Source: a virus | Taxonomy: Duplodnaviria > Caudoviricetes | Virus record (IMG/VR): IMGVR_UViG_3300043579_000163 | Span: 1-64,000 of that record | Direction: 5' to 3' (one strand) | DNA: 64,000 nucleotides | Shown here: one piece after another, positions 4,734 through 36,950 of the stretch | How positions within the stretch are numbered: position 1 is the stretch's first letter | How the letters are laid out: each line of letters opens with the position of its first letter | The notes under the pieces: model-generated | Databases searched by the model: none | What the model was told of the DNA's origin: nothing | What the model saw: only the letters and a program-made list of their open reading frames with translations | Translations under genes and position numbers: made by a program

Positions 4734-4973
4734 TCAGGCAAGATTCAGGTCCACGTTGAAAAGGCAGAGCGCCAGCTTCTTATAAAGCGGAACGCGAATG
4801 TTCATCGCAGCGAGCACCGGGTCTAGCTTGTCCCAGGCGTAGAATTCGCCACAATACTTTCCGTCGACTTTCAAGATGGTTGATGTGCGGAACCCGACGG
4901 GCGCAGAGAGCATCACGCGGACCGGCTTTGCAGTTTTGAATTTCATATTCACGTCCTCACTGTCGCACGTCAC
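4734..4973 (-). CDS. Hypothetical protein
   Basis: GTG start overlaps the helicase stop; 79 aa. Confidence 0.55.
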   Translation of the reverse strand: MTCDSEDVNMKFKTAKPVRVMLSAPVGFRTSTILKVDGKYCGEFYAWDKLDPVLAAMNIRVPLYKKLALCLFNVDLNLA

Positions 4974-6604
4974 ACGCCCACAATCAAGGTCTTTTTTGCG
5001 CGCGTGACCGCGACGTAGAAAATGTTGGCCTCCTCCCCGTCCTTACCCTTGAAGCTGCTGTTGACCAAGCAGACCGTGTCCCACTCGAGCCCCTTGGCCT
5101 TGTGGACCGAGCTACAGACCACGGCGGGGGTCCGGTTGCCGCTGCTGTCCTGGAAAATCTCAGTGATGCGGGCCTCGACCTGGGAGACGTTCGTGCAGCC
5201 GTCGGCGATAGCCGTAAGCGTCGCGACTTGGTCCTGGACCAGCTCCACCTTGCTCTGGACGTGCTTCCCCCCGCCGGCCCGCGCGCGGGAGCACTGACGG
5301 TCACCCCACAGGGCCAGCTTGGACAGGAACTGGGGCACGCTCTTGGCCTTCAGCTTACGGACCATGCCCACAAGCTGCTGGCCGATGTCGCGGCCTTCCA
5401 CGCGGGCCGGTATCCCGCGGCGCAGCAGGCCCAGGCAGATGCCCATCAGCGGGGCGTTCAGGCGGCTCAGGACGGCGTCACCGGGGGCGAGCGTGGCAAC
5501 CGCGGCGTTCAAGGTCATCTCGACCACTTCTCCTTCCGGTGCGCTCGGGGCCGCGGTGTAGTCCTCCACGATGGTGTTGGCCAGGGCGACTACGCTTTTC
5601 GGGCAGCGGTAGGTCGTGGTGAGCCCCAGGGTGCCGGCGTTCAAGCGCTGGCGCATCAGGTGCATCCCGTCAGAAGCGGCTCCGCGGAACCCGTAGATGG
5701 CTTGGCGGTCGTCGCCCACGATGCAGATGCGGCCACCGGGCTTGCAGGAGCGTTCAGCCATCAAAAGCTGGGGCATGTTCATGTCCTGGGCCTCGTCGAC
5801 CACGACCAGGGAAAAGGTCGGCTTCACCCAGCCGGCGGCGACCGGGAGCCAGACCATGTCATTGAAGCTGATACGCGCGAAGGCATCCTTTTCCAGCGTG
5901 AGCCGGAGCACGTCAATCGCGAGCTGCGCCAGCTTGGCCGGCGGGAAGGCCAGCTCCAGCTCGTCCGGCGCGCAAATGTCTCTGGAATCCGCCAGCTCGA
6001 GGACCTCGTTCAGGTCGGGCACGTTCACGAAGCTGTTCTTGCAGAAGCCGACCAGCTTGACGACCTGGGTGACAATTTCCTCGGGCATCCCGGGGCTCAC
6101 GCGCTCGATGCGGTCGAACTCGACGTTGTCCTCGGGCTTCGCATCGGCCCACATGCGCTTGATGAAAAAGAAACCCAGGGAGTGCAGCGTCTTGACCTCA
6201 ACGCGGGCGTCGGTGATTTTCTCCTGCGCCTCAACCTGGTTCTTCTTGTTGAACACGGCGTAGAACAGGCGCCCGGCCTCGGGGGCGTGGTTGAAGGCCT
6301 CCTTGATGGTGGTGGTCTTGCCCGTGCCCGCGCGCGCTTGGACAACCATGTTGCCGGAGCCCTGTGCGAACCACTGGAAAATGTTGAGCTGCTCGTCGGA
6401 CCACGCGGGCTGGACATTGGTGCCGCTGTTCACGCGCGCCGTGGTGGTCCCCCTGCCAGAGACCAGCGCGAGGGCCTTCTCGGCGACCTCGGCCCGGACG
6501 GTCCAGCACTTCTTGACTCCATTCCACCGTGCGCCCAGGGCTTTGAGGGATTCCTTGACCGGATAGGTGTTTCCCGTAATCTCAACAAAAGCTGTTTCAC
6601 TCAT
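4970..6604 (-). CDS. UvrD/Rep-like superfamily 1 helicase with small N-terminal extra domain
   Basis: ARAGTGKTT (Walker A), VVVDEAQDM (Walker B), VGDDRQAIYGFRGA, TYRCPKSVV, SVHKAKGLEWD, EEANIFYVAVTRAK. Confidence 0.93.
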   Translation of the reverse strand: MSETAFVEITGNTYPVKESLKALGARWNGVKKCWTVRAEVAEKALALVSGRGTTTARVNSGTNVQPAWSDEQLNIFQWFAQGSGNMVVQARAGTGKTTTIKEAFNHAPEAGRLFYAVFNKKNQVEAQEKITDARVEVKTLHSLGFFFIKRMWADAKPEDNVEFDRIERVSPGMPEEIVTQVVKLVGFCKNSFVNVPDLNEVLELADSRDICAPDELELAFPPAKLAQLAIDVLRLTLEKDAFARISFNDMVWLPVAAGWVKPTFSLVVVDEAQDMNMPQLLMAERSCKPGGRICIVGDDRQAIYGFRGAASDGMHLMRQRLNAGTLGLTTTYRCPKSVVALANTIVEDYTAAPSAPEGEVVEMTLNAAVATLAPGDAVLSRLNAPLMGICLGLLRRGIPARVEGRDIGQQLVGMVRKLKAKSVPQFLSKLALWGDRQCSRARAGGGKHVQSKVELVQDQVATLTAIADGCTNVSQVEARITEIFQDSSGNRTPAVVCSSVHKAKGLEWDTVCLVNSSFKGKDGEEANIFYVAVTRAKKTLIVGV

Positions 6605-6610
6605 GCGGTT

Positions 6611-6638
6611 AATTTACCACGGGCGAGGCGGGTGTCAA
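6611..6638 (-). promoter_or_regulatory. Class I promoter, leaderless
   Basis: TTGACA-16-TAAATT-6-ATG; the 20-mer CGTGGTAAATTAACCGCATG is identical to the one at 7203-7222. Confidence 0.8.
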
Positions 6639-6642
6639 GGGC

Positions 6643-6846
6643 CTATTTCAATCGAGTTTTTGTCACCACACCAATCCGGAACCCGGGGCAGCCGGACAAG
6701 GCAAACCAAGTTCGCCCGTCGGGTGACGTGCAGCTCCGGCAGACCAAGAGCGCCGGGAACAGCGGCCCACCGCACTCACAGCGGTGCCGCTTCAGAAGCC
6801 GGCGCATGAAAAAGACGCGCCGGCAGGCCTTGCAAGCAGCGTTCAA
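6643..6846 (-). CDS. Small Cys-rich putative zinc-binding protein
   Basis: CKAC...CEC...CRSC; start overlaps the upstream stop. Confidence 0.5.
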   Translation of the reverse strand: MNAACKACRRVFFMRRLLKRHRCECGGPLFPALLVCRSCTSPDGRTWFALSGCPGFRIGVVTKTRLK

Positions 6847-7205
6847 AACGGGATTTCGTCGGTTTCAACCAACACGGCCTCGCGGGGTGCGCGCGCGAAG
6901 GGCCAGATTTCAATCCGCTCGTCGCCCAGCGGGTGGTGGTGCTTCGCAGCCTGCTCGGCCACCACGAGGCGGTCCGGCCCAAAGGCCAGGATGGTGCAGC
7001 GGTCACCAAGAACGGCGTCAGTGATGGGGCAATACTCTGGGGACCACTCCACCGCGACGTGCAGGCCGTCCTGGACCAGGGACAGGGCCCGAACCCGGTC
7101 GCCCCCATTGCGGCGCATCGAGGACGCCGCCGCGGCGCGCTGATAGTCGTTGGTGAACCCGTCGTTTTCCGCCTCCAGCTCATTGCGTTCTTGCTCGTTC
7201 ATCAT
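6843..7205 (-). CDS. Hypothetical acidic protein ending in DEIPF (leaderless)
   Basis: Promoter abuts the ATG; C-terminus ETDEIPF. Confidence 0.7.
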   Translation of the reverse strand: MMNEQERNELEAENDGFTNDYQRAAAASSMRRNGGDRVRALSLVQDGLHVAVEWSPEYCPITDAVLGDRCTILAFGPDRLVVAEQAAKHHHPLGDERIEIWPFARAPREAVLVETDEIPF

Positions 7206-7211
7206 GCGGTT

Positions 7212-7239
7212 AATTTACCACGGTTCCGGACCCCGTCAA
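7212..7239 (-). promoter_or_regulatory. Class I promoter, leaderless
   Basis: TTGACG-16-TAAATT-6-ATG. Confidence 0.8.
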
Positions 7240-7254
7240 GGGCAAAAAATAGGT

Positions 7255-7409
7255 TGGCATGGTGGGGGATTGAACCTCCTGGCGCACCTCGCGAAGCGCG
7301 CCCTCCACAATCCAGGCTCCGAATGCCGGGCGGCGTCATACGCCCCAGGGACCAACCCAGGGCTTTTGCAAAGCACCGTAGTCTCCCGACCTCCGCCTGT
7401 TACCGTGCC
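7255..7409 (-). ncRNA. Expanded tRNA-like RNA (155 nt)
   Basis: 5' GGCACGG pairs 3' CCATGCC-A (6/7); GGAGG-TTCAATC-CCCCA imperfect T-arm; about 120 nt multi-hairpin insert; flanked by T-runs. Confidence 0.5.
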
Positions 7410-7411
7410 AT

Positions 7412-7634
7412 AAAAATTGTCCTCGCCACAGTTTCGAACTGTGCCTTTCGAGACTTGCCCGACGTGCTACCAACCACACTCACGAGGTTGCTGACGGGTG
7501 ACGGTCCCCGGATTACACAGACACTGTCCCGGTTTCCCACTGTGGCGCATGGGCGGGGCTATTCTGTTCATCACCCTCGCTAACGCGTTACACTACGTCC
7601 TTCCATCTGGCTCCGTTACGAGCACTATCAGCAC
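7412..7634 (-). ncRNA. Putative structured non-coding RNA (about 220 nt)
   Basis: Own promoter with no ATG following; stems GTGCTG/TAGCAC, GGGTGA/TCACCC, CCTCG/CGAGG, CACAGTT/AACTGTG, GG-GAAA-CC; ends at a T-run. Confidence 0.55.
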
Positions 7635-7637
7635 CTC

Positions 7638-7665
7638 AACCTACCACACCAGGGCCCGGCGTCAA
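7638..7665 (-). promoter_or_regulatory. Class I promoter driving the non-coding region
   Basis: TTGACG-16-TAGGTT. Confidence 0.7.
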
Positions 7666-7940
7666 ATTCTTTTTCCAGCAATCGCAGTATGTCCCGGTTT
7701 CGATATACCCATCGCAGGAGCACCGACGAGGAGGCTCACCCGTTTTCGAGGGAGGAAAAGCCGGGTGAAACTCGTGGTAGCGCGTCTCTTCCGTTGCGTC
7801 CACCGCTGCCAGTAGTTGTAAGGGTCCGTATCGCCGTCACAACGCCAGTTCCAGCCGTTACTCTTCTCTCGCGTTACCCCAAGCATGAACACATTCGGGT
7901 GTTCCTTGGTATAGCGTCTCCGTTTGACTTGGTGCTTCAT
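7662..7940 (-). CDS. Hypothetical basic protein
   Basis: 92 aa ORF filling the gap between a terminator and a promoter. Confidence 0.5.
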   Translation of the reverse strand: MKHQVKRRRYTKEHPNVFMLGVTREKSNGWNWRCDGDTDPYNYWQRWTQRKRRATTSFTRLFLPRKRVSLLVGAPAMGISKPGHTAIAGKRI

Positions 7941-7972
7941 GAAAAGAAAACGGGCGGGTTCCCTCCCGCCCT
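7941..7972 (-). terminator. Intrinsic terminator
   Basis: Minus strand GGGCGGG-AGGGAA-CCCGCCC followed by GTTTTCTTTTC. Confidence 0.75.
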
Positions 7973-7991
7973 TACGCCGTCCGTGGGAATC

Positions 7992-8438
7992 TTAGTGGTT
8001 GCCCCCGCTCGGGTTGTTGATGTGCCCGGGAGGAACGAAGGTGCCGCCGCCAGCGCCGCCAGTTCCGTTTCCGCCAGTGCCCACCCCGCCGTTGCCACCA
8101 GTGCCGCCAAGGCCAACGCTCGTCGCTCCGCCGCCGGACTGCTCAACGTTGGTGTTGCTACGGGCCGGGCGCAGCACCGCTGCCGCGCCGACCAGACCGC
8201 CGGCATTCGCGACAGCCGGGACGAATCCAGGACCGCCCGCTCCATTCAGCACGACGAGTTCACCGGACTTGGTCAGCCGGCACACCGTCGTGGTGCTCGG
8301 GGCGAAGACGCCAGCCGTTTTGATGCGAATGATTTTGTCGCCGTTCGGAAGGGTGCCGATTTCTTTCACGCCGGCTTTCGCCAAGCTAACCGAGAGCAGC
8401 AGGGCTGCAATCGCCAACAGGTTTTTGATTTTGGTCAT
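7992..8438 (-). CDS. Exported protein with signal peptide and Gly-rich C-terminal half
   Basis: MTKIKNLLAIAALLLSVSLAKA signal peptide; GGTGGNGGVGTGG tail. Confidence 0.7.
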   Translation of the reverse strand: MTKIKNLLAIAALLLSVSLAKAGVKEIGTLPNGDKIIRIKTAGVFAPSTTTVCRLTKSGELVVLNGAGGPGFVPAVANAGGLVGAAAVLRPARSNTNVEQSGGGATSVGLGGTGGNGGVGTGGNGTGGAGGGTFVPPGHINNPSGGNH

Positions 8439-8479: not shown

Positions 8480-8911
8480 TCACTTCTGCTCCACGCCATT
8501 GATGCTGTGGTTGATTTTGTCCCAGGTCTCCGTGACCTTCCGACCGTGAGTCAAACGAGAGAATCTGTGCGTGTTCGGGTCGTATTCCTGCCAGTCCTTG
8601 GCCCAGGGGCCGCGGAAGGTGAGGACCCAGGTCGTGCCGAAGGAGAAGACGCGGTGAAATGTGTTCCGCAAGGTCCGCACAGGACGCAGACCTGAAAAGT
8701 GAGCTACGGCAGGGCCCTGAAGGAACTCTTCCCACAAGACTCCGCGCAGAACCCAGGACACGCTGTTAAAGGCGTGTGAGTGGAACGATTCGCGTGTGCC
8801 GTGCGTGAAGCGCAACAGCGCGACGCTGAACAGCCCCTTGATTTCACACAGCCAGAAGGCCGTGACGTTAGACTCAGGCCCACCGTCTTTTGATATAGAG
8901 AGGAGTTTCAT
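8480..8911 (-). CDS. Cupin-like protein
   Basis: FHSHAFNSVSWVLRGVLWEE ... TFHRV (HxH...E...H metal motif). Confidence 0.6.
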   Translation of the reverse strand: MKLLSISKDGGPESNVTAFWLCEIKGLFSVALLRFTHGTRESFHSHAFNSVSWVLRGVLWEEFLQGPAVAHFSGLRPVRTLRNTFHRVFSFGTTWVLTFRGPWAKDWQEYDPNTHRFSRLTHGRKVTETWDKINHSINGVEQK

Positions 8912-10143
8912 TGCTGTCCTGTGATGATGGTTTTCGGTTCCCCACGAAGCTCTCCGTCCGAGGGCAGGAACTTCTTGTAGAAGCCGCGGTCGAAAAACAT
9001 GTTGAATTCCGGTCGAACCCGAGTGATGGCTCCGGTCTTCGAGGACATCTTGAACTCGAGGATGACACCTCCGATTTCGTAGCGCAGGTGTTTAGTGCGC
9101 CCGAAAATGGTCTGCTCCTGGAATCCCGGCATCCCGATGATATGGACGTTCCGGTCGAAGCTGTAGCCGCTGACGTGATAGTGGCCCTGCACCAGAATGG
9201 CCGGCTTCTCGCCGCCCTGGAAGCTCTCCACCATCTTCTGGCCCTTGTAAGACCGCGCGTAAGCACTGCCGCCGCCCGGGTGCTGAATCTTCATGCGGTT
9301 CACGAACTCCCCGCAGCGCAGCTCGACGTCGGCCTCGACGTGCCCGATGTATTTCATGTCCTTCCGCCCGAGCCGCTCGCAGACCATCTGAAGATAGGCC
9401 CCGAAGTTGAAGCCCTCTTTCTGCCACCAGCCTTCGTGGTCGTTGCCGGTGATGAAGTGCGTTGTGACCCCGTCGCGTTTCGGATAATGGCGCGCGCAGT
9501 AGAGCGCCTGCCCGTCCACGCTGGTTTCGAAAACGCTGCCGCCGTTAATGCGGGGCACGTAGCCGTCGACGATGTTGCCAGCGTGGAAAACGTCGCGAAC
9601 TCCCTCGCGGGCGAACAGGTCATATTGAGCGTTGAGCGCGTCGAGCCTCTCTTCCCGGCAGCACAGATGCGTGTCGGCCACGAGCCCGATTTTCGTCCAG
9701 GCGTCGCCGTCGAAAACATCGAGCGGGATGCTGCCGAACTCCGTGGGGACCGTCTTGGCCTGCTCGATGAGCGGGTCCTGCTTCGCGGCCGCACCATCAG
9801 CGGGGCTGGGGGTCGGTGCGGGTTCCCCCGCCACTTGGACCACAGGACCCGGAGACGTGCAGACCGCCCACTCGCGACCGTTCCATTCCCTAGGCAAACC
9901 GTCGGGACCAACCCAGATGGGGTTTTCGGGACGCACGAAGTTAGGCATCTTCGCTGCCGGCCCTTTCGCGGAGGCGACCAGTTTTCTCGGCGCACGGAAA
10001 AGCAGACTCTCCGGTGCGAAGCGCTGACGGGCCCGGCGGATGGCGGGTTCGCTCACGCCAAAGAACGTAGCAAGGTGGTCATCCTCACACCCGTCTTTGA
10101 TTAGTTGCTTCAGGGTGACTCTATCCGTTTGTGTCCATTTCAT
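8908..10143 (-). CDS. Calcineurin-like metallophosphoesterase with N-terminal HTH
   Basis: VADTH, HAGNIVDG, TGNDHE, QHP, GHYH motifs; N-terminal LATFFGVSEPAIRR HTH-like segment. Confidence 0.85.
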   Translation of the reverse strand: MKWTQTDRVTLKQLIKDGCEDDHLATFFGVSEPAIRRARQRFAPESLLFRAPRKLVASAKGPAAKMPNFVRPENPIWVGPDGLPREWNGREWAVCTSPGPVVQVAGEPAPTPSPADGAAAKQDPLIEQAKTVPTEFGSIPLDVFDGDAWTKIGLVADTHLCCREERLDALNAQYDLFAREGVRDVFHAGNIVDGYVPRINGGSVFETSVDGQALYCARHYPKRDGVTTHFITGNDHEGWWQKEGFNFGAYLQMVCERLGRKDMKYIGHVEADVELRCGEFVNRMKIQHPGGGSAYARSYKGQKMVESFQGGEKPAILVQGHYHVSGYSFDRNVHIIGMPGFQEQTIFGRTKHLRYEIGGVILEFKMSSKTGAITRVRPEFNMFFDRGFYKKFLPSDGELRGEPKTIITGQQ

Positions 10144-10173: not shown

Positions 10174-10704
10174 TCACTTGGCGCTTCTCTTTGTTATGGT
10201 TATCGCCCACCGGAGCAAGTGTAAGGCATCCGCGCAGTTGTCGTCAACTATGGTGATTGCCGGAAAAAGTTTAGTTGCCTCCCGGACCATGAAGTCCTTG
10301 TCAGCCGCGCCGCTGCCCGTGGCAAGCTTTTTCAACGCGGTCACGGGGATGCAGTCCGTCTCGACATTGTGGATGTAGCAGAAAAGCCACACCGCGGCGC
10401 GGAAGCTGGACCAGAGCTGGGTCTGCATGGTGTAGCGAGAAAACTGCACGTCCTCGAACACCAGGAAGTCCACGGGATAGTTGACGAGGCCGGCGTCACA
10501 CTTGTGGTCCGCCCAAAGCAGACGAAGCCGCTGATACAGCGCAGGAATGCGCGGGTCCAGCCGGCGGTCTAGGCGCGCCTTGGCTGCGCGTTTTCTCTTG
10601 GCCTCGTCTTGCAAGAGCCACGAGCCCGCGGTAATCTTGCCGGCGGCATCCCGGTAGGCCCAGCCGGTCGTGGTTCCGAGGTCGAGTGCGAGGAGGGTCT
10701 TCAC
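10174..10704 (-). CDS. RuvC-like Holliday junction resolvase
   Basis: LLALDLGTTTGWA, FEDV, DDNCADAL acidic residues. Confidence 0.85.
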   Translation of the reverse strand: MKTLLALDLGTTTGWAYRDAAGKITAGSWLLQDEAKRKRAAKARLDRRLDPRIPALYQRLRLLWADHKCDAGLVNYPVDFLVFEDVQFSRYTMQTQLWSSFRAAVWLFCYIHNVETDCIPVTALKKLATGSGAADKDFMVREATKLFPAITIVDDNCADALHLLRWAITITKRSAK

Positions 10705-11408
10705 TTCGCCGCCCTCTTGAACCCCGCGCGCAGCTTCGCTACAATCTGTCCGTGCGCCGCGTGAACCGCCTGCCGGCTCACCTTGCGCTGCCGAGCAATG
10801 TCGGCCATGCTAATTTTCTCATCATAAATGAGCCGGAGCAGCTCCCTCTCGCCGACAGTGAGCTTGCAGCGGCACTTTTTTAGCATCGAGAGGTTCAGTC
10901 CCCGTTCTTCTTGCTCCATCACAATCTCGTCGGTCGACGGGGCTAGCTCGGCAATCTGGCGCTGCGTCTTCACGGGAAGGTGAGGCGGGTTTGTTCCTCG
11001 GTTATTGTCATGCTCCTCTTCCGTGTAGGGCGTGAAGCCGGGGAACTTGTCCGAGTGTGAGGAGGGCGTCACCGTGTTCTTAGACTTCCACAGACCGGCA
11101 ATGGCGCCGCGCAGAAAGGGCATCAGGTAGCGTGTGAAACGATTTCCCCGCTCCGGGTCGAACCTGTCGATGGCGTTCATCAGCGCGGCGTTCACGGCGG
11201 ATATCACTTCATCATCTGGAAGCCGGCCACGATTCTGGCGGCGAGCGAATCGTGCAGCGAACAGCAGATGGTTGTGGATAAGGAATTCACGAGCCGCTGT
11301 GTCGCCCTTTTTCGCCGCCACGAAAAGATTGCGTTCTTCTTCGGGAGTGGTGAGTTTGAAGCGGAGGTTTTCGTTTGCACGATAGTAGTTATTGCTGTTG
11401 GGTGTCAT
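10701..11408 (-). CDS. RNA polymerase sigma70-family sigma factor
   Basis: Region 1.2 LTTPEEERNLFVAAKKGDTAAREFLI, region 2 ALMNAIDRFDPERGNRFTRY, region 4 HTH ISMADIARQRKVSRQAV. Confidence 0.9.
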   Translation of the reverse strand: MTPNSNNYYRANENLRFKLTTPEEERNLFVAAKKGDTAAREFLIHNHLLFAARFARRQNRGRLPDDEVISAVNAALMNAIDRFDPERGNRFTRYLMPFLRGAIAGLWKSKNTVTPSSHSDKFPGFTPYTEEEHDNNRGTNPPHLPVKTQRQIAELAPSTDEIVMEQEERGLNLSMLKKCRCKLTVGERELLRLIYDEKISMADIARQRKVSRQAVHAAHGQIVAKLRAGFKRAAK

Positions 11409-13662
11409 TAGATTTCTGGTAAATGCTGTCCGTCCTTTGTTCAGGCACTTCCAGAACCGTGAGATTCTTCGGATAGTGTGTGCAGCGGTCGATTTCGTAT
11501 GTGCGAATCTTGGAGCCCTCGAGAATGCGAATCTTGAACTGCGAACTCTTGCTCAGGGTCATCAGGTCGCGCTTGATGCGGTCCAGGTCGAACTTGCGTA
11601 GAACCTCCGTGAGCCCCGGAACCTGCGCGAACTGTTGCCATAGGTCAAGCGCGCTGCCGGTCCACACGTTGGCGTCGGGGTTCGTCTTTGTGAAGTATTC
11701 GCGCATGAAGGCGTTCATCAGCTCCGCAGTGTTCGAGGCGCGGCTGCTCTGCTGGGCTGAGATGACCATGTATGGGTCGTGATAAGGCTTGATGCCCCCG
11801 AATCGCTCATCCCGGACGGCTGAGCTACGGCATTGCTCGGGGATTTCGTAATCCAGCAGGAAGCGACCGAACCAGGGCAACTCGCGGTCGAGGATGGTCT
11901 TCACCTCACCCCACCCGGGAAAAGATTTTGTCCGTTCTTTCGCCAGGAACATCATCACCTTGTCAGCCATTTCGGCGTCCATGTCGGGAGGCGTGAAAGA
12001 CGTGGAGTCCATGTTGCAGGTAATCACGGTTAGGGCGCAGTTCCCAATCACCGCGCCGATACGAAACTTTTCGTTGCACTCTTTGGAAGGGTTCGCGACA
12101 CTCTGTTTTACCTTCTCGCAAAACTTCCGCCACACTGGCGAGTTGGTTTCCATCGAGGTGTCGTCAACGGCGTGATACGCGTAATCGAAAAGCTGAGAGT
12201 TGAAGTTCGTTTCCCCGAGCAGGTGGGCCTTCGCCTCAGCGAAGCCTCCCAAAAGCCGGCCCATCACCTCACGGCTCTGGAAAGTTTTTCCGCATCCGAC
12301 AGGACCTCCGATGTAGAGAGCATGACCCGGGGTCAGGTTCCGGTTGTAACAGCCCTTGTAGGCCTTGCTTGCCCAGCTCAGGAAAAACGGGAGCTGGTCA
12401 GGCGTGGCGAAAAAGTTGTCATAGAGGTCCGAGAGGAACGGGAACTGTCCTTCGGGGCCCCAGATTGCTTTTCCCTCCGCCGGCTGGATTACGTCGCGCG
12501 TGTGAGTGTTAAGGTAGTAGTGACCGTTGAAAAAGATTTTGCCCTTGGGTTCTGAAAAGGCGAAGCTGGCGTGCGCCTTCACGCGTTGCTCATTGTGGAT
12601 GTAGGCGTATGCAGCCTCGACCTCAGAGAACCTCTCGCCCTTTTTCTTGCTGACCTCTCGCGACAGGCCGCGCATCACTACCAGCTCGGTCTGCACGTTG
12701 TCCTTGTTCAGGATGTCCCAGCGCCCGCTCTCCCTTTTTACCGCATAGTCCTTTCCGTCGAAGTAGACGTCCTTCACTGCCGTTCCAATTCGGTTCTGTT
12801 CAAACTGCTTCACCCAGTCTGCGCCCAGCAGCTCGGACCAGGACCACCAGCCCTTGCCCAACTGATTCGCATGATTGGAAAAGGTCTTCATGCCGTTGTC
12901 CATCACGATGGCGGACCTCTCCGAAGTTGAGCCATCGACCCAGAAGGTTGGTCCCTGCGCCCCCAGGGCGAAGTCTCCCTTCCATTCTTGGAAGCGGGGA
13001 TACTTGTCCTTGAGTTCTCGTAGACGTTCAGCCACCACGGGAATCGGGATGACAACGCCCGGTTCCATATCCTTCCATGAATACGAGCGACACAGCTTGA
13101 CCAGCCAGCCGACAACCAGAGCGTGCGGGATGGGGTTCGGGTTCACCTGACGCCATTGGCAACCATTCGCGTAATAGCGAGAGGGCTCCGTGTATCCAGA
13201 GTCCAGGTTGCTCAGCTCTTTAATCGGAAGGAAATCATGAATACTTTTTAGCAGGAAGACTGCAAAGTTTCGGGATGAGAGGAGAATGGGCACCTCGAAA
13301 ATCCAAACCAGCCGCCAGTTGCCGGACAGGGAACGCTCTACCCAGTTCGGCTTTATGTCCATGCGCGCGATTGCCGATTCGACTTCCTGTTCCGTGAACT
13401 TCGCGTCATAGTCACCCACGAAACACCGAAGCTCTCGCGGAGAGTTCGCACTGTCCTTTCCACCGGCCTCGCTCACGCGCGCGTTCTCGTTGATGGCAAC
13501 GAAGCCCGTGTAGAACATGAAGTCGGTTGCGGGTAAATTTGCCCAGGTCTCCCGGGCCGCCTTGTCTCCGAGACAATTCGGGGGAACTAGGTCAAGCTTG
13601 ATGAACTCCCAGGGGTTGCCTTCAAAGGTTTCGGTAGAGGAAAGGTTTTTGAGGTATCGCAT
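11389..13662 (-). CDS. Primase-helicase (N-terminal primase-like DxD domain, C-terminal SF3/D5-like NTPase)
   Basis: VGDYDA...RSLSGNWRLVW; YIGGPVGCGKT Walker A; HAVDD Walker B; adjacent to the DNA polymerase. Confidence 0.8.
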   Translation of the reverse strand: MRYLKNLSSTETFEGNPWEFIKLDLVPPNCLGDKAARETWANLPATDFMFYTGFVAINENARVSEAGGKDSANSPRELRCFVGDYDAKFTEQEVESAIARMDIKPNWVERSLSGNWRLVWIFEVPILLSSRNFAVFLLKSIHDFLPIKELSNLDSGYTEPSRYYANGCQWRQVNPNPIPHALVVGWLVKLCRSYSWKDMEPGVVIPIPVVAERLRELKDKYPRFQEWKGDFALGAQGPTFWVDGSTSERSAIVMDNGMKTFSNHANQLGKGWWSWSELLGADWVKQFEQNRIGTAVKDVYFDGKDYAVKRESGRWDILNKDNVQTELVVMRGLSREVSKKKGERFSEVEAAYAYIHNEQRVKAHASFAFSEPKGKIFFNGHYYLNTHTRDVIQPAEGKAIWGPEGQFPFLSDLYDNFFATPDQLPFFLSWASKAYKGCYNRNLTPGHALYIGGPVGCGKTFQSREVMGRLLGGFAEAKAHLLGETNFNSQLFDYAYHAVDDTSMETNSPVWRKFCEKVKQSVANPSKECNEKFRIGAVIGNCALTVITCNMDSTSFTPPDMDAEMADKVMMFLAKERTKSFPGWGEVKTILDRELPWFGRFLLDYEIPEQCRSSAVRDERFGGIKPYHDPYMVISAQQSSRASNTAELMNAFMREYFTKTNPDANVWTGSALDLWQQFAQVPGLTEVLRKFDLDRIKRDLMTLSKSSQFKIRILEGSKIRTYEIDRCTHYPKNLTVLEVPEQRTDSIYQKSNDTQQQ

Positions 13663-13702: not shown

Positions 13703-15709
13703 CTATTTCAAATAGTGGGGGACCTCTTTTGCTTCCGCGGTGAGCGGGCAGCCCTTCAACCACTCCGGGCACTGCGACATCACGTCTTGAACGTCCTTGG
13801 CCGACACTGACTGGTCAACCTCATTCACGGCCTCGTCATGCGCCGTGAACAACACCGTCCCATCACCAAAGTTTCGGTCCAGCTCTAGGCAGTGAAAACC
13901 AAAGACATCCCGGGCAATCGCCTGCACCATGTTTTCCGTGAGCATCCCTCCGTAGAACGGAACGCGCATCAGTCGGCCATTCTTGATTGCCTCGGCGCGG
14001 ACGCACAGCCGATTCCGCCATCCGCCCTTCTCTTCATCAAAATGCTTCACCCACTCGCGAGCCACCTTGCGGTAGTAGAGGGAACGACCGCTAGGGAGTT
14101 CAACGGAAAACTCTCCGTCCAGCACGCTGTCACGGTAGGCCTTGTCCAGATGCTTCCAGAGCGCAACAATTTTCGGGTTGTTGGCGCGGAACTCCTTCAC
14201 GCACTTCCTTGAAAAGGTTCCGTAGCCCGAGACCATCTTCGGTGTTCCGTCCTTGTTCAGGATTGGCTCCCCGTCCTCGTTGAGCACGGCGACGAACTCC
14301 GGGTCATCCTTGGTGACATCGCAGCGGGCTTGGTCCCAGGCCAGCTTGATGAACTTCTCCCAGGCGCACTGATAGCCGAGGCCGAGGACCTGCGCCTTGC
14401 TCAGCGCATACCTGTCCTTGTCCTGCTTTTTCATGTCGCCGCCGGTCCAGCCCATCTGTTGGCGCGCGAAGGCCTCGTAGGGAGACTGGCCGGAAGCCAT
14501 CATGTCCAACAACTCTTGGTTGCCGGTGACCCAGGCCAGCACGCGCGGCTCAATCTGGGAGAGGTCCGACACAATCATTTTCTTGCCGGGCCGCGGGATG
14601 AAAATGGAGCGGAGGTCGAGCGAGGCCGTGACAAATCCTGGCAATGGCTTCCCCTCATTCTGTGTCTTCTCAATCTCTTTCAGGCGGTCGGGCTCGTTGA
14701 TGAGGTAGCCCTTGTCGTCGCGATACAGCGGCTCCTTTCGGGGATTCTGCATGTTCACGCCGCCGTCGCCACTCCACCGTCCCGTGTGCGCCCCGAAATA
14801 CTTCAGACGAAACTGTAGGATTCCCTCGGGGGTGAGCCGCTCCTTGATGGTCTCGAGCGAGCCCAGGAAAAGGTTGATGCTCCTTCGCTTGGCGACGTTG
14901 GCCACCCACTCAAAACGGGGAGCATACAAAGCCTCCCACTCGTCAAAGGCCTCCTCGCCCTCGTGAGCCTTAACGGGAGGGGAGGGGATGCCCGATGCCC
15001 GGCACCGTTCCGCAATGGCTTTCGGGGACGTGGGCGCGTGGCCCTCTGCAATCCAGGGCAGCGTGGCCTCGCAGTCCTTTAGCATCGTGTGCGCCGTCTT
15101 AATGTAATCAACGAGCTTGGAAACATCGATTTGAATGCCGCGCTTTCCCTGGCGCGAGGTCTGGCGGGCGAGAGCCCTCTCAAACTCCGGCCACTTATCT
15201 CCATGCTTGACCCACAGCTCTCGCGTGGTAACCGCGTCCCTGCGCCCGTAGCGCACCATTTCATCCCACCATCCCTCGGCCTTAATCTGGTCCGCGGTCT
15301 TTCCGTTGGCCTTCGCGCGCGCGTGCTTGTCCAGCACAACGTCCAGAAGAAACTTAGCGGCCTCTTCAAGACTGCGGCGGTTACATAAATACGCCGACAT
15401 GTTCGCCGTGCAGAACCAATCCTTCGGATGGATTATCGGCGCGATGCCCAGTTCGACCTGACGCTCATATACCCCGCTATCAAAGTGTTCGTTGTGACTA
15501 ACCAGGGTGTTGTCATCCAGGGAGGACCAATTAAAGTCCCTCGGATGTCCTGCCCATGTCTCCGACTCATCGGCCACGGTTATCAGATAATTATCAAACC
15601 TCGGACTGTGCAGGTAGGCATAGTCGCCCATCTGCGTAATGGAAAAACCCCCGCCCTTCTTGGACTTGTGGTAAAAGGTTTCCGTGTCGAATCCGATAAT
15701 GCGATGCAT
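13703..15709 (-). CDS. polA: DNA polymerase family A with 3'-5' exonuclease
   Basis: GFDTET (ExoI), SDLSQIEPR (motif A), KAQVLGLGY (motif B), AHDE (motif C), FYGGMLTENMVQAIARD. Confidence 0.93.
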   Translation of the reverse strand: MHRIIGFDTETFYHKSKKGGGFSITQMGDYAYLHSPRFDNYLITVADESETWAGHPRDFNWSSLDDNTLVSHNEHFDSGVYERQVELGIAPIIHPKDWFCTANMSAYLCNRRSLEEAAKFLLDVVLDKHARAKANGKTADQIKAEGWWDEMVRYGRRDAVTTRELWVKHGDKWPEFERALARQTSRQGKRGIQIDVSKLVDYIKTAHTMLKDCEATLPWIAEGHAPTSPKAIAERCRASGIPSPPVKAHEGEEAFDEWEALYAPRFEWVANVAKRRSINLFLGSLETIKERLTPEGILQFRLKYFGAHTGRWSGDGGVNMQNPRKEPLYRDDKGYLINEPDRLKEIEKTQNEGKPLPGFVTASLDLRSIFIPRPGKKMIVSDLSQIEPRVLAWVTGNQELLDMMASGQSPYEAFARQQMGWTGGDMKKQDKDRYALSKAQVLGLGYQCAWEKFIKLAWDQARCDVTKDDPEFVAVLNEDGEPILNKDGTPKMVSGYGTFSRKCVKEFRANNPKIVALWKHLDKAYRDSVLDGEFSVELPSGRSLYYRKVAREWVKHFDEEKGGWRNRLCVRAEAIKNGRLMRVPFYGGMLTENMVQAIARDVFGFHCLELDRNFGDGTVLFTAHDEAVNEVDQSVSAKDVQDVMSQCPEWLKGCPLTAEAKEVPHYLK

Positions 15710-33601: not shown

Positions 33602-33770
33602 ACGAACAGACACCTTCATCGCCGGCACCACGATGTTCCGGGTGACCCCAGGTCCTTGGCTCCGCAAACGCGGAGTGATTTTCGGGCCATGGTGCCACTC
33701 GCGCCGAACCGCCGTGCTGATGTGGATTGCGAACGTGTCCGACTGCCACGATTTTCACCCGGGCCTATGA
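33588..33770 (+). CDS. Hypothetical protein
   Basis: Stop overlaps the recombinase ATG. Confidence 0.55.
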   Translation: MITIERTDTFIAGTTMFRVTPGPWLRKRGVIFGPWCHSRRTAVLMWIANVSDCHDFHPGL

Positions 33771-34480
33771 AAGTTTTCGCCTACCTGCGGGTCAGCACCT
33801 CAGCGCAACTCGACGGAGGGGGGTTCGAACGCCAGCTCGACACCATTAAGGTTCTCTGTGCTGCGCGTGGGTGGACTATCGCGCGCACCTTCAGGGACCA
33901 GCAGAGTGGATGCACTGAGTTCGATGACCGCTCGGGACTGCATGAAATTCTGTCCCTGGCCGGAGAGGGCAGCGCGCTTGGGATTGATACCGTCATCGTG
34001 GAGAACGCTTCTCGCGTGGCGCGTGACCTGATGGTGCAGGAGATTTTTCTGTGCGAATGCCGCAAGAGGGGCATCAAGGTTTACGCGGCGGACTGTGGCG
34101 AGGAGCTGGTCATGGACGGCGCAGACCCCTCGCGCGTGATGATTCGCCAAATTTTGGGCGCGGTGTCACAGTATGAAAAGGCCATGACTGTCCTGAAGCT
34201 CCAAGCGGGACGGCGCAAGAAGGCCCGTGAAACGGGCAGGCCTTGCGGGGGCCCCAAACAATACGGGACCACCGCAGGTGAACGCGCAATTCTCACCGAC
34301 ATTAAGATGCGCCGACGCCAGGGTAAAACCTTTCAGGAGATTGCCAACGAGATGCGTGAAATTGGGTATCCCGCGCCCCGTGGCGGATATTGGCACCGCT
34401 CCACGGTCTGGACAATACTGACTCGGGATGCGGAACGGAAAGCGGCGCAGAACCGATTTGACCAAGACAACGACCAATGA
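33767..34480 (+). CDS. Serine recombinase (resolvase/invertase catalytic domain plus short C-terminal recombinase HTH)
   Basis: MKVFAYLRVSTSAQ (catalytic Ser), IVENASRVARD, C-terminal TFQEIANEM...GGYWHRSTVWTIL. Confidence 0.9.
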   Translation: MKVFAYLRVSTSAQLDGGGFERQLDTIKVLCAARGWTIARTFRDQQSGCTEFDDRSGLHEILSLAGEGSALGIDTVIVENASRVARDLMVQEIFLCECRKRGIKVYAADCGEELVMDGADPSRVMIRQILGAVSQYEKAMTVLKLQAGRRKKARETGRPCGGPKQYGTTAGERAILTDIKMRRRQGKTFQEIANEMREIGYPAPRGGYWHRSTVWTILTRDAERKAAQNRFDQDNDQ

Positions 34481-35878: not shown

Positions 35879-35908
35879 TTGACAAGGGGCCCTTGAGCGA
35901 GATATGTT
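35879..35908 (+). promoter_or_regulatory. Sigma70-like promoter for the RNA cluster
   Basis: TTGACA-18-TATGTT, no ATG-led gene follows. Confidence 0.6.
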
Positions 35909-35921
35909 CAGGTGTTAGAAA

Positions 35922-35934
35922 TGTTCTTTGAAAA
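35922..35934 (+). promoter_or_regulatory. boxA-like antitermination element
   Basis: TGTTCTTTGAAAA, matching the rRNA-operon boxA consensus of many bacteria, about 15 nt after the -10 box. Confidence 0.6.
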
Positions 35935-36003
35935 AGGTTGTTCCTTTGTGGCCAACCCGCTGTGTAACAACTCAGCCGCCAGGGCCGCGATAGGGTCCAC
36001 CAA

Positions 36004-36126
36004 TTTCTCCGAGTGTCTTACCGAATGGTGGGAATCTGCCGCAGAGCTATGCGGGCCCACCATAGAGGGAATGGAAGCACACCGCCTCAAAAGGCGTTAG
36101 TCCGGGTTCGAGTCCCGGGGAGAGGA
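36004..36126 (+). ncRNA. Expanded tRNA-like RNA (123 nt), degenerate CAA anticodon arm
   Basis: TTTCTCC pairs GGAGAGG-A (7/7 with 2 G-U); perfect T-arm CCGGG-TTCGAGT-CCCGG; 52-nt hairpin insert after the 5' acceptor strand. Confidence 0.55.
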
Positions 36127-36127
36127 A

Positions 36128-36736
36128 CAGACCCGAGCAGGTCATATAAAAGGCTCGATGTCGAGACGGGGTTTCGCGAAGTTGCAGTTCTCCTGCACCC
36201 GAAAGGACGCATGGCCCCGCACCAGCTCGACTATTGTGCGAGGGACTAGGATGGTCCCCGCCACATTTTTTGTGACCTGACGCAACAACTCTTCCTGGAC
36301 CCAGGTTGAAAAGAATAGAGGAAAGGTTAAATGCCCTACGGACGGTCTCCAATTTTGACGCGACTCCGAACAACAGGCCGCAGGACCCCCAGGGAGGCCA
36401 CGGCAAGCGGGGAGGAACACGGGGGCGCGCCAGCCGGCGAATGGCTCAAAGTCCGAGAGGGCTACCGGGAGCCCGCCAATCTGAACTACGGTTCAGAGCC
36501 CAGTCGAACTGGCGTAACCAACCCCCGCTTACTTTTGATGGGCTCGTCGTCTAAGAAAGGACACCGGCTAAATATCCATCACTGGACTCGAAGCTGCGCC
36601 TTAAACAGACCGCTTCGACCAAACCAACTTCTCCGGGGAGAGCGGGGTTTCGGCCCTGAAGTAACGGCGTCTTAAGCGCACGTGGAATAACGCCCCGGAA
36701 ATTTTGCGGTAGAGGCCACAGAAAAGCCAAACCGCT
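36128..36736 (+). ncRNA. Hairpin-dense putative structured RNA(s), several modules separated by T-runs
   Basis: Stems GTCGAG/CTCGAC, AAGCGGGG/CCCCGCTT, TCCGGGG/CCCCGGA; tetraloops TACG, TTCG, GAGA, GAAA; no convincing ORF. Confidence 0.6.
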
Positions 36737-36738
36737 GC

Positions 36739-36811
36739 GCCGCCGTGATGCCTGGGGCCAACTGGAACTCCAAATCCCGGTGGGAGGGTTCAATCCCCTC
36801 CGGTGGTGCCA
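36739..36811 (+). tRNA. trnW: tRNA-Trp(CCA) with shortened D-arm and encoded CCA end
   Basis: GCCGCCG/CGGTGGT acceptor, G73, CCA; anticodon loop CTCCAAA; perfect T-arm GAGGG-TTCAATC-CCCTC; 73 nt. Confidence 0.75.
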
Positions 36812-36818
36812 TTTTTAT

Positions 36819-36941
36819 GTTCCCTGGGCCGGGGGAAAATGCCCGGTTCGATAGCAGGGTGCTCGCGGTGAGATATCTAGCCGCGGGAACTGGAAGGGTA
36901 AAGACCAGCGACCCGAAGCCGTTCAAATCGGCGGGGGAACA
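36819..36941 (+). ncRNA. Expanded tRNA-like RNA (123 nt) with three-way-junction insert
   Basis: GTTCCCT pairs GGGGAAC-A (7/7); GCCG-TTCAAAT-CGGC T-arm; GCCGGG/CCCGGT hairpin; GGGT/ACCC stem enclosing two hairpins. Confidence 0.55.
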
Positions 36942-36950
36942 GCCCTTTTC

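Follow-up and report, generated by a model that had tools for sequence, protein, structure and literature searches.

A short noncoding gap among the replication genes of a soil phage contains a 155-nt element, here termed TLS2 (positions 7255-7409, minus strand), which we regard, with somewhat better than even confidence, as a real RNA unit, though an orphan one, within a phage operon whose products are irregular tRNA-like RNAs that do not decode. What the evidence supports is that TLS2 is an acceptor plus T-loop mimic without an anticodon, situated in a noncoding unit that looks transcribed. The case for it is carried by genomic context. All positions refer to the window, which is the whole 64-kb stretch of DNA analyzed and represents the first 64 kb of a 72.8-kb IMG/VR virus genome. 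That record is rated complete, and the source is a soil phage; the GC content of the window is 58%.

A noncoding gap among replication genes

Around TLS2 the minus strand carries the following genes, most of which form a replication module:

4970-6604, minus strand: UvrD-type helicase, replication module
6843-7205, minus strand: o120, a conserved gene and the downstream neighbor of RNA operon 1
8908-10143, minus strand: metallophosphatase-like protein, replication module
10701-11408, minus strand: sigma-70-type factor, replication module
11389-13662, minus strand: DUF5906 primase-helicase, replication module
13703-15709, minus strand: family A DNA polymerase (PolA), replication module

TLS2 sits in a 456-nt noncoding gap (7206-7661), between a doubtful 92-codon ORF and o120. 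The genuine genes of this phage have GC3 values of 0.70-0.87 and GC2 values of 0.41-0.46. For the ORFs that overlap TLS2 the corresponding values are 0.62-0.64 and 0.53-0.57, and the coding signature is absent from both strands of 7206-7661. A public gene caller placed no gene in this interval on the identical contig L041. A protein-coding reading of the gap, on either strand, was ruled out by GC3 and the stop patterns.

Some features just upstream are worth recording. Two ORFs of 92 and 102 codons in 7662-8245 (minus strand) are without the coding GC3/GC2 signature, and the 92-codon ORF is uncalled on the identical public contig. A strong terminator (7971-7952, minus strand), followed by ~280 nt that are probably noncoding, lies upstream of the operon 1 promoter.

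The phage encodes no CCA-adding enzyme. A helicase-profile search of GTDB genomes found no host or prophage relatives, a search with the Trp-like 3′ half was equally negative, and looking up the sigma factor in a protein atlas gave no usable host clue.

Organization of RNA operon 1

Read on the minus strand, the gap comprises a promoter, a leader, a first tRNA-like unit (TLS1), a UUUUUAU spacer, TLS2, and a U-run, after which the promoter of o120 begins:

7638-7665, minus strand: operon 1 promoter read from sequence, TTGACG, a 16-nt spacer, and a TG-extended TAGGTT
7489-7632, minus strand: leader RNA of ~145 nt, with no tRNA-like features and no credible ORF (GC3, stop-rich frames)
7419-7488, minus strand: TLS1, a 70-nt near-cloverleaf tRNA-like unit, called by neither ARAGORN nor Rfam
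7255-7409, minus strand: TLS2, a 155-nt irregular tRNA-like RNA running from G7409 to A7255, the last unit of operon 1
7244-7249, minus strand: U-run ending operon 1, missed by the terminator scanner
7212-7239, minus strand: o120's own promoter, TTGACG-16-TAAATT with TG, separate from operon 1

The operon 1 promoter scores under the threshold of the consensus scanner. It shares the layout TTGACR-N-GTGGTAAATT with the o120 and helicase promoters, and the same layout is found in the operon promoters of two related phages (L003 and L002, described below). TLS1 has an acceptor with six of seven pairs, a D arm (UGUG/CACG, loop GUUGGUAG), a perfect T arm (CACAG-UUCGAAA-CUGUG), and an “anticodon” loop of only 5 nt on a 5-bp stem. 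TLS2 begins exactly after the UUUUUAU spacer that lies 3′ of TLS1. A preliminary description of the element, made before this analysis, had noted T-runs on both sides of it, and these are indeed found at 7416-7412 and 7249-7244. The downstream run begins 6 nt past the closing stem, and for that reason it would be weak as an intrinsic terminator.

The ATG of o120 lies 6 nt past its -10 box, so the o120 mRNA is probably leaderless. An identical 22-nt string (GTGGTAAATTAACCGCATGA..) precedes both o120 (7202-7223) and the helicase gene (6601-6622) on the minus strand. More generally, the phage appears to use leaderless mRNAs from promoters of the class TTGACR-N-TGGTAAATT, a layout that relatives share.

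Sequence anatomy and predicted fold of TLS2

Every string quoted in the preliminary description is present on the minus strand. The acceptor that it proposed (GGCACGG/CCATGCC-A) brings together 7409-7403 and 7262-7256, with the discriminator A at 7255. It is present, but with only six of seven pairs, as there is a C5·A68 mismatch that had gone unmentioned. The ensemble probability of this closing stem is 0.99, and U8-A9 follow directly after its 5′ strand. The T-loop TTCAATC, at 7274-7268, was read correctly. It agrees with the consensus G53-UUCRANY-C61 (G-UUCAAUC-C, 7275-7267), with 5 + 7 = 12 nt before the A discriminator, and belongs to a hairpin at 7279-7263. In the canonical register, however, the T stem (GGAGG/CCCCA) forms only three of five pairs, and the minimum-energy fold moves it to GG.GG/CC.CC with a 6-nt loop.

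Between these elements, the proposed long-range stem of CAGGC (7399-7395) and GCCTG (7317-7313) was recovered with an ensemble pairing probability of 0.98; it closes a 77-nt body. The hairpin GGCGCGC/GTGCGCC at 7302-7281 also held up (probability 0.95), and it folds as 9 bp with a CGCG loop. This was not so for the three inner hairpins (GGTC-GGGA-GACT, GCTTT/AAAGC, and GGCGT/ACGCC), whose ensemble probabilities are 0.002-0.008 and in place of which the energy model favors a single long irregular hairpin. The suggestion that a multibranched domain replaces the D and anticodon arms is right about the missing arms, but a multibranched body is energetically disfavored. The favored fold of TLS2 contains neither a D arm nor a 7-nt anticodon loop, and the hairpin of the sole 7-nt anticodon-loop candidate (AUUCGGA) has an ensemble probability near 0. 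With no D arm and no such loop, the RNA would be unable to decode.

The stability of the fold as a whole is at chance level (z = -0.76; folds of equal or greater stability were obtained for 44 of 200 shuffles). A search for antisense targets within the phage returned only chance-level matches of 12-16 nt.

Comparison with known RNA families

Rfam gives no match to TLS2, whether at the gathering score or at E values up to 10; the tRNA and tRNA-Sec models in particular are silent even at E = 10. ARAGORN calls no genes in the window, and none with introns allowed at the default threshold. Its tRNA, intron, tmRNA, and mitochondrial modes return nothing credible for TLS2. Identity as a tRNA was rejected given the T stem with three of five pairs, the absent D arm, and the silence of ARAGORN and Rfam. 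A tRNA carrying a single insertion or intron was rejected as well, because an exhaustive deletion scan gives no ARAGORN call for TLS2. The same single-deletion scan does convert two tRNA-like RNAs of the relative L003 (L003_A and L003_C) into ARAGORN tRNAs.

The preliminary description had set the element apart from tmRNA, and we agree. C3-G70, read from the sequence, stands in place of the tmRNA G3-U70; the translations of TLS2 include no tag-like ORF; and there is no tag frame, no resume codon, and no ARAGORN or Rfam tmRNA match. It is not a YrlA RNA either, as there is no Ro60/TROVE gene, the topology is different, and Rfam reports no match. The phage genome lacks a TROVE domain by a search in which control genomes gave matches, and the ends of TLS2 form an acceptor-like stem plus discriminator, not a Ro-binding helix.

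A second RNA operon and the rarity of the tRNA-like combination

The window contains a sister operon, whose main features are as follows:

35879-36950, plus strand: RNA operon 2, promoter TTGACA-18-TATGTT followed by ~1 kb without a credible ORF
36004-36126, plus strand: tRNA-like unit
36739-36808, plus strand: Trp-like unit with CCA encoded
36819-36941, plus strand: tRNA-like unit, the second match of the composite scan described below

Operon 2 is made up of about eight units parted by short U-runs. In both operons several irregular tRNA-shaped units are found per transcription unit, as in irregular tRNA polycistrons. It has mosaic homologues in three relatives (L026-L028), in which units have been added, lost, or moved at the U-run borders. 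The L026 homologue opens with a normal tRNA-Met(CAT) called by ARAGORN (L026:1423-1493, plus strand) that is absent from the window; by this first unit, the operons go back to tRNA operons. Sister units that keep the top half of a tRNA, have lost the anticodon, and have an enlarged body adopt a tRNA-like fold as their free minimum-energy structure.

Strict T-loop motifs (GTTCRANYC) occur 16 times in 128 kb, four of them within the two RNA operons, an enrichment of ~20-fold. We also scanned for a composite pattern that combines the strict T-loop, a T stem of at least three of five pairs, an acceptor of at least six of seven pairs, and T-runs at both ends. This yielded two matches in the window, TLS2 and 36819-36941, each the last unit of an ORF-free operon. 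For a random 64-kb sequence the expected number is 0.02, and of 200 such sequences 3 gave a match at all. The tRNA-like combination in TLS2 is thus rarer than chance, by criteria that were fixed only after the element had been seen.

One module of operon 2 is not tRNA-like. Its core (36127-36275, plus strand; L026:1690-1850; L027:2436-2590) is highly conserved in the three phages and forms two hairpins with compensatory double changes (UGCAG/CUGCA vs. CGCGG/CCGCG, and GGGAC/GUCCC vs. GGGAGC/GCUCCC). From this comparison the module is a real structured RNA without a family assignment. More broadly, the RNA operons encode structured RNAs that are under selection. A serine-recombinase-type integrase/invertase gene (33656-34480, plus strand; PHROG integrase 2e-30) is located ~1.4 kb upstream of operon 2.

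The locus in related phages

As relatives we considered 24 IMG/VR contigs whose helicase is 50-82% identical to that of the window. What lies between the metallophosphatase-like and helicase genes is hypervariable among them. In L003, whose helicase is 82% identical, a promoter and three tRNA-like RNAs (L003_A, L003_B, and L003_C; 185, 102, and 99 nt) occupy the same position, upstream of the o120 homologue. All three have perfect T arms, acceptors with six or seven of seven pairs, and enlarged middles. CCA is encoded in L003_A and L003_B, and L003_C, directly upstream of the o120 homologue, scores 43 bits on the Rfam tRNA model. L002 has an analogous RNA operon at the same position. By comparison, five other relatives (L004, L017, L024, L034, and L038) have no RNA operon there and only protein genes.

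TLS2 itself is without a diverged homologue in the 24 + 7 + 3 + 5 related loci or in pattern scans of IMG/VR. BLASTN and nhmmer searches with 7206-7661 found no match in the 24 helicase-linked relatives, and BLASTN against seven operon-2 relatives found one 16-nt match only (E 0.65). BLASTN of the RNA locus against L051, L061, and the INPHARED phages likewise gave no match. Exact and gapped pattern scans of IMG/VR (T arm plus acceptor, the whole-unit frame, and TLS1) gave 0 matches, and none of the diverged o120-homologue loci from IMG/VR, JGI metagenomes, and a protein collection carries a TLS2-related RNA.

Two haplotypes of the locus

The exact o120 protein is found on 17 public contigs, 10 of which are covered by the haplotype comparison. 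L041 is identical to the window (haplotype I). The other nine contigs (L042-L050) represent a commoner form, haplotype II, and are mutually identical across the RNA locus (182 nt from promoter to U-run). Three segments of the locus can be distinguished:

7391-7632, minus strand: 242-nt block found in haplotype I only, with GAGGT direct repeats at its borders (alignment of L041 with L042)
7370-7390, minus strand: 21-nt diverged segment, with nine differences between the haplotypes
7255-7369, minus strand: 115-nt TLS2 core, 100% identical in 10 of 10 contigs, both haplotypes

By BLAST, haplotype II matches the window at 100% only from 7369 downward. The promoter is kept in haplotype II with three changes, and the U-run is kept in both. 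Besides the leader and TLS1, the 242-nt block includes 19 nt from the 5′ end of TLS2, among them the acceptor 5′ strand and CAGGC. Within the diverged segment, a change from UUU to AGG swaps the potential hairpin GCUUU/AAAGC for CAGGGC-AAAA-GCCCUG in haplotype II. Haplotype II is therefore predicted to specify a single RNA of ~120-140 nt, with a short private 5′ end and the identical 115-nt core. Lacking the acceptor 5′ strand and CAGGC, haplotype II must give the shared core another fold, and the 155-nt form may be a recent recombinant. Haplotype II has two possible 5′ strands of its own, GGCAGGG and GGUGUCG, and either one makes six of seven pairs with the unchanged 3′ strand. The presence of alternative closing strands in both haplotypes is suggestive of selection for closure, short of proof.

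At one position of haplotype II there is a gene for a 150-residue signal-peptide protein (L042:1769-2221, plus strand), with homologues in L004 and L024 (MxxIKxLL...GVKxIxTLPNGDxIIRIKTAGVF). The window has a doubtful 148-codon ORF and noncoding DNA at the corresponding position.

What TLS2 may be

We read TLS2 as the closing cistron of a short noncoding operon with a promoter of its own, set in the variable region between the replication genes. Its paired ends would stack on the T-loop hairpin, giving the upper half of a tRNA, and the remainder would consist of the 77-nt irregular hairpin plus the 9-bp hairpin, the latter at the position of a class II variable arm. Host tRNA-processing enzymes might then read this half-tRNA module. 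Cleavage by RNase P behind the AU-rich spacer would leave G7409 as the 5′ terminus, and trimming of the other end would stop at A7255, to which CCA would be attached. The presumed outcome is release of a stable RNA of ~155 nt, a non-decoding tRNA mimic comparable to RNA1 of phage T5 and other anticodon-less look-alikes. Its most likely role would be to bind or divert a tRNA-recognizing host factor in phage-host conflict. What the analysis demonstrates directly is how the sequence is built, its noncoding setting, the class of its promoter, the sister units, the two-haplotype structure, and that TLS2 belongs with none of tRNA, tmRNA, and Y RNA. Transcription, processing, and stability are inferred, as is the decoy role, which is our best guess.

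Several observations lead to this reading of TLS2 as a genuine unit: the noncoding gap, the spacer and U-run borders, the closing stem (0.99), the T-loop enrichment, and the composite rarity. It also draws on the operons of L003 and L002, the tRNA-Met of L026, the compensatory changes in operon 2, and the precedents of T5 RNA1 and the soil polycistrons (see below). Counted against it are the imperfect stems, the z value of -0.76, the failure of any single deletion to yield a tRNA, the gap in haplotype II, and the lack of a diverged homologue. A rival reading makes TLS2 a decay remnant, that is, a class II-type phage tRNA gene that lost its D arm and anticodon loop by mutation and recombination and persists without function in a transcribed spacer. 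We think this unlikely, although it is the likeliest of the rival readings: there are A·C mismatches in both the acceptor and T stems (the latter at three of five pairs), the fold is no more stable than shuffled sequence, an internal recombination breakpoint at 7369/7370 makes TLS2 a chimera whose 5′ end is missing from the commoner haplotype, there are no homologues elsewhere, and five relatives manage without an RNA operon at this position. However, both haplotypes have retained the 115-nt core, the promoter, and the U-run, and in each of them the common 3′ strand has a 5′ partner with which it forms six of seven pairs. Moreover, the plan of a kept top half and an enlarged body recurs in sister units and in the stable T5 RNA1, and simple decay leaves structured inserts of 50-150 nt unexplained.

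The z value, the post hoc composite criteria, and the lack of ensemble support for the inner hairpins could also mean that the likeness is accidental, with the stem and T-loop being incidental features of the 3′ part of an ordinary phage small RNA or of a terminator region. This seems quite improbable to us, as the composite pattern was found twice where 0.02 was expected (in both cases in the last unit of an ORF-free operon), T-loop motifs are ~20-fold enriched in the two operons, the adjacent upstream unit TLS1 is a near-cloverleaf, and the positional counterpart in L003 matches the Rfam tRNA model. Least probable, and in our opinion very doubtful, is a working irregular tRNA of the allo-tRNA type that is charged and used in translation or another aminoacyl transfer. 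Such a molecule can be drawn with an 8/4 branch, an extra loop after the acceptor, a D-like hairpin with a UUGGUC loop, an anticodon arm (CCCGGC-AUUCGGA-GCCUGG, anticodon UCG), a long variable arm, and a T arm. The 8/4 reading has 10 of 12 pairs, compared with 9 of 12 for 7/5; the 9-bp hairpin directly before the T arm resembles a class II V-arm; the 7-nt loop AUUCGGA can be drawn with U33 and R37; and features of this kind have been described for irregular soil tRNAs (PMC5389517, PMC7609411). Yet, relative to the minimum-energy fold, the multi-stem model costs 20.5 kcal/mol in haplotype I and 10.7 kcal/mol in haplotype II, and its anticodon-like hairpin has an ensemble probability near 0 in the former and of at most 0.16 in the latter. 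No identity elements were recognized, and ARAGORN and the Rfam tRNA and tRNA-Sec models are, as noted, silent.

A wider and rather speculative proposal may also be made, to which we give a low probability: that both operons, together with those of relatives, are a fast-shuffling toolkit of tRNA-scaffolded RNAs serving as decoys or inhibitors against host defenses that target tRNAs. In each unit, a private body would be joined to no more than the features that RNase P, the CCA enzyme, and elbow-binding proteins recognize. Near-identical genomes would exchange units in whole or in part, haplotypes I and II and the operon 2 mosaic being examples. Were this true, the “acidobacterial” irregular tRNA polycistrons of soil would be largely phage transcripts.

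Relation to known tRNA mimics and significance

Ever since T4 and T5, phage tRNA clusters have been known to include non-decoding tRNA look-alikes with no assigned function. Among them, the closest in architecture to TLS2 is RNA1 of T5 (AY543070, 30501-30644), annotated as “tRNA-like stable RNA with unknown functions” in a tRNA region that has further stable RNAs (RNAI, RNAIII, and RNA2H). Both are phage-encoded, lie among tRNA or tRNA-like genes, and are of similar length (144 nt in T5, 155 nt for TLS2), and both have a closing stem, an enlarged body in place of the anticodon arm, and a long hairpin beside the T arm. TLS2 may be placed with T5 RNA1 in that it belongs to a tRNA-like cluster and keeps the acceptor and T-loop while a larger non-decoding body replaces the anticodon arm, “T5 RNA1 type” being a descriptive group and not a curated family. 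The T5 RNA folds into an acceptor, a D arm, an enlarged anticodon arm, a long variable-arm hairpin, and a perfect T arm. Unlike TLS2 it thus has a D arm and clean stems, and its z value is -1.78 (vs. -0.76). The two share no sequence similarity, and the T5 host is an enterobacterium, whereas the TLS2 phage is from soil. The status of a stable RNA is stated in the T5 record, whereas for TLS2 it is a prediction.

In mascRNA, from the 3′ end of MALAT1, a tRNA-shaped module recruits RNase P and tRNA end-processing enzymes and so defines RNA ends. That system is eukaryotic and its tRNA-like piece is a by-product, whereas the tRNA-like piece of TLS2 would be part of the mature RNA. Like tmRNA, TLS2 has an acceptor and T arm without a normal anticodon arm and a large body between them; it differs by C3-G70, by the missing tag frame, and by being about half the usual tmRNA size. 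YrlA RNAs resemble it as non-decoding RNAs with a tRNA-like T-loop module, some of which are phage-encoded, but in YrlA the two termini pair to make the helix that binds Ro60, and the tRNA-like part is placed internally (Chen et al. 2014, PMC4201824).

Metatranscriptomes of forest and peat soil contain polycistrons of irregular, allo-tRNA-like tRNAs (Mukai et al. 2017, PMC5389517; reviewed in Krahn et al. 2020, PMC7609411). Typical of these tRNAs are an 8/4 branch, a long V-arm, one more loop between the acceptor and D stem, and pair disruptions; they appear to be unused in translation, and were attributed to Acidobacteria and linked to toxin-antitoxin loci (PMC5389517, PMC7609411). The Mukai type has a 12-bp acceptor branch, 8/4 or 9/3, with a long V-arm (PMC5389517). 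Compared by description only, TLS2 shares with them soil origin, polycistronic organization, pair disruptions, and a doubtful use in translation. Its 9-bp hairpin may correspond to their V-arm, and 8/4 suits its pairing slightly better than 7/5, but its carrier is a phage and it lacks the anticodon loop that theirs retain. The idea that the element represents a new class of tRNA mimic is thus not borne out, because the same architecture occurs in T5 RNA1, in the sister units, and in relatives, and fits the description of the irregular soil polycistrons.

Taken alone, TLS2 would be a modest addition. The locus does add an example from an uncultured soil phage of non-decoding tRNA look-alikes with dedicated phage-type promoters; its units form modules, and phages that are otherwise alike carry different ones. 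The locus also makes it conceivable that the irregular tRNA polycistrons published from soil metatranscriptomes are phage-borne. The two haplotypes, 100% identical downstream and different in the leader, TLS1, and the 5′ closing strand of TLS2, are a ready-made comparison for what tRNA-like closure does.

A tRNA-like fold within a helicase gene

In two of the relatives, a 107-nt tRNA-like fold occurs inside the helicase ORF itself (L009:4964-5070 and L011:4886-4992, plus strand), in the low-complexity linker that joins the N-terminal domain to the helicase core. The fold combines a 7/7 acceptor and a perfect T arm with a long hairpin in the middle, and its T stem changes in a compensatory way between the two phages (GAAGG/CCUUC vs. 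GAGGG/CCCUC).
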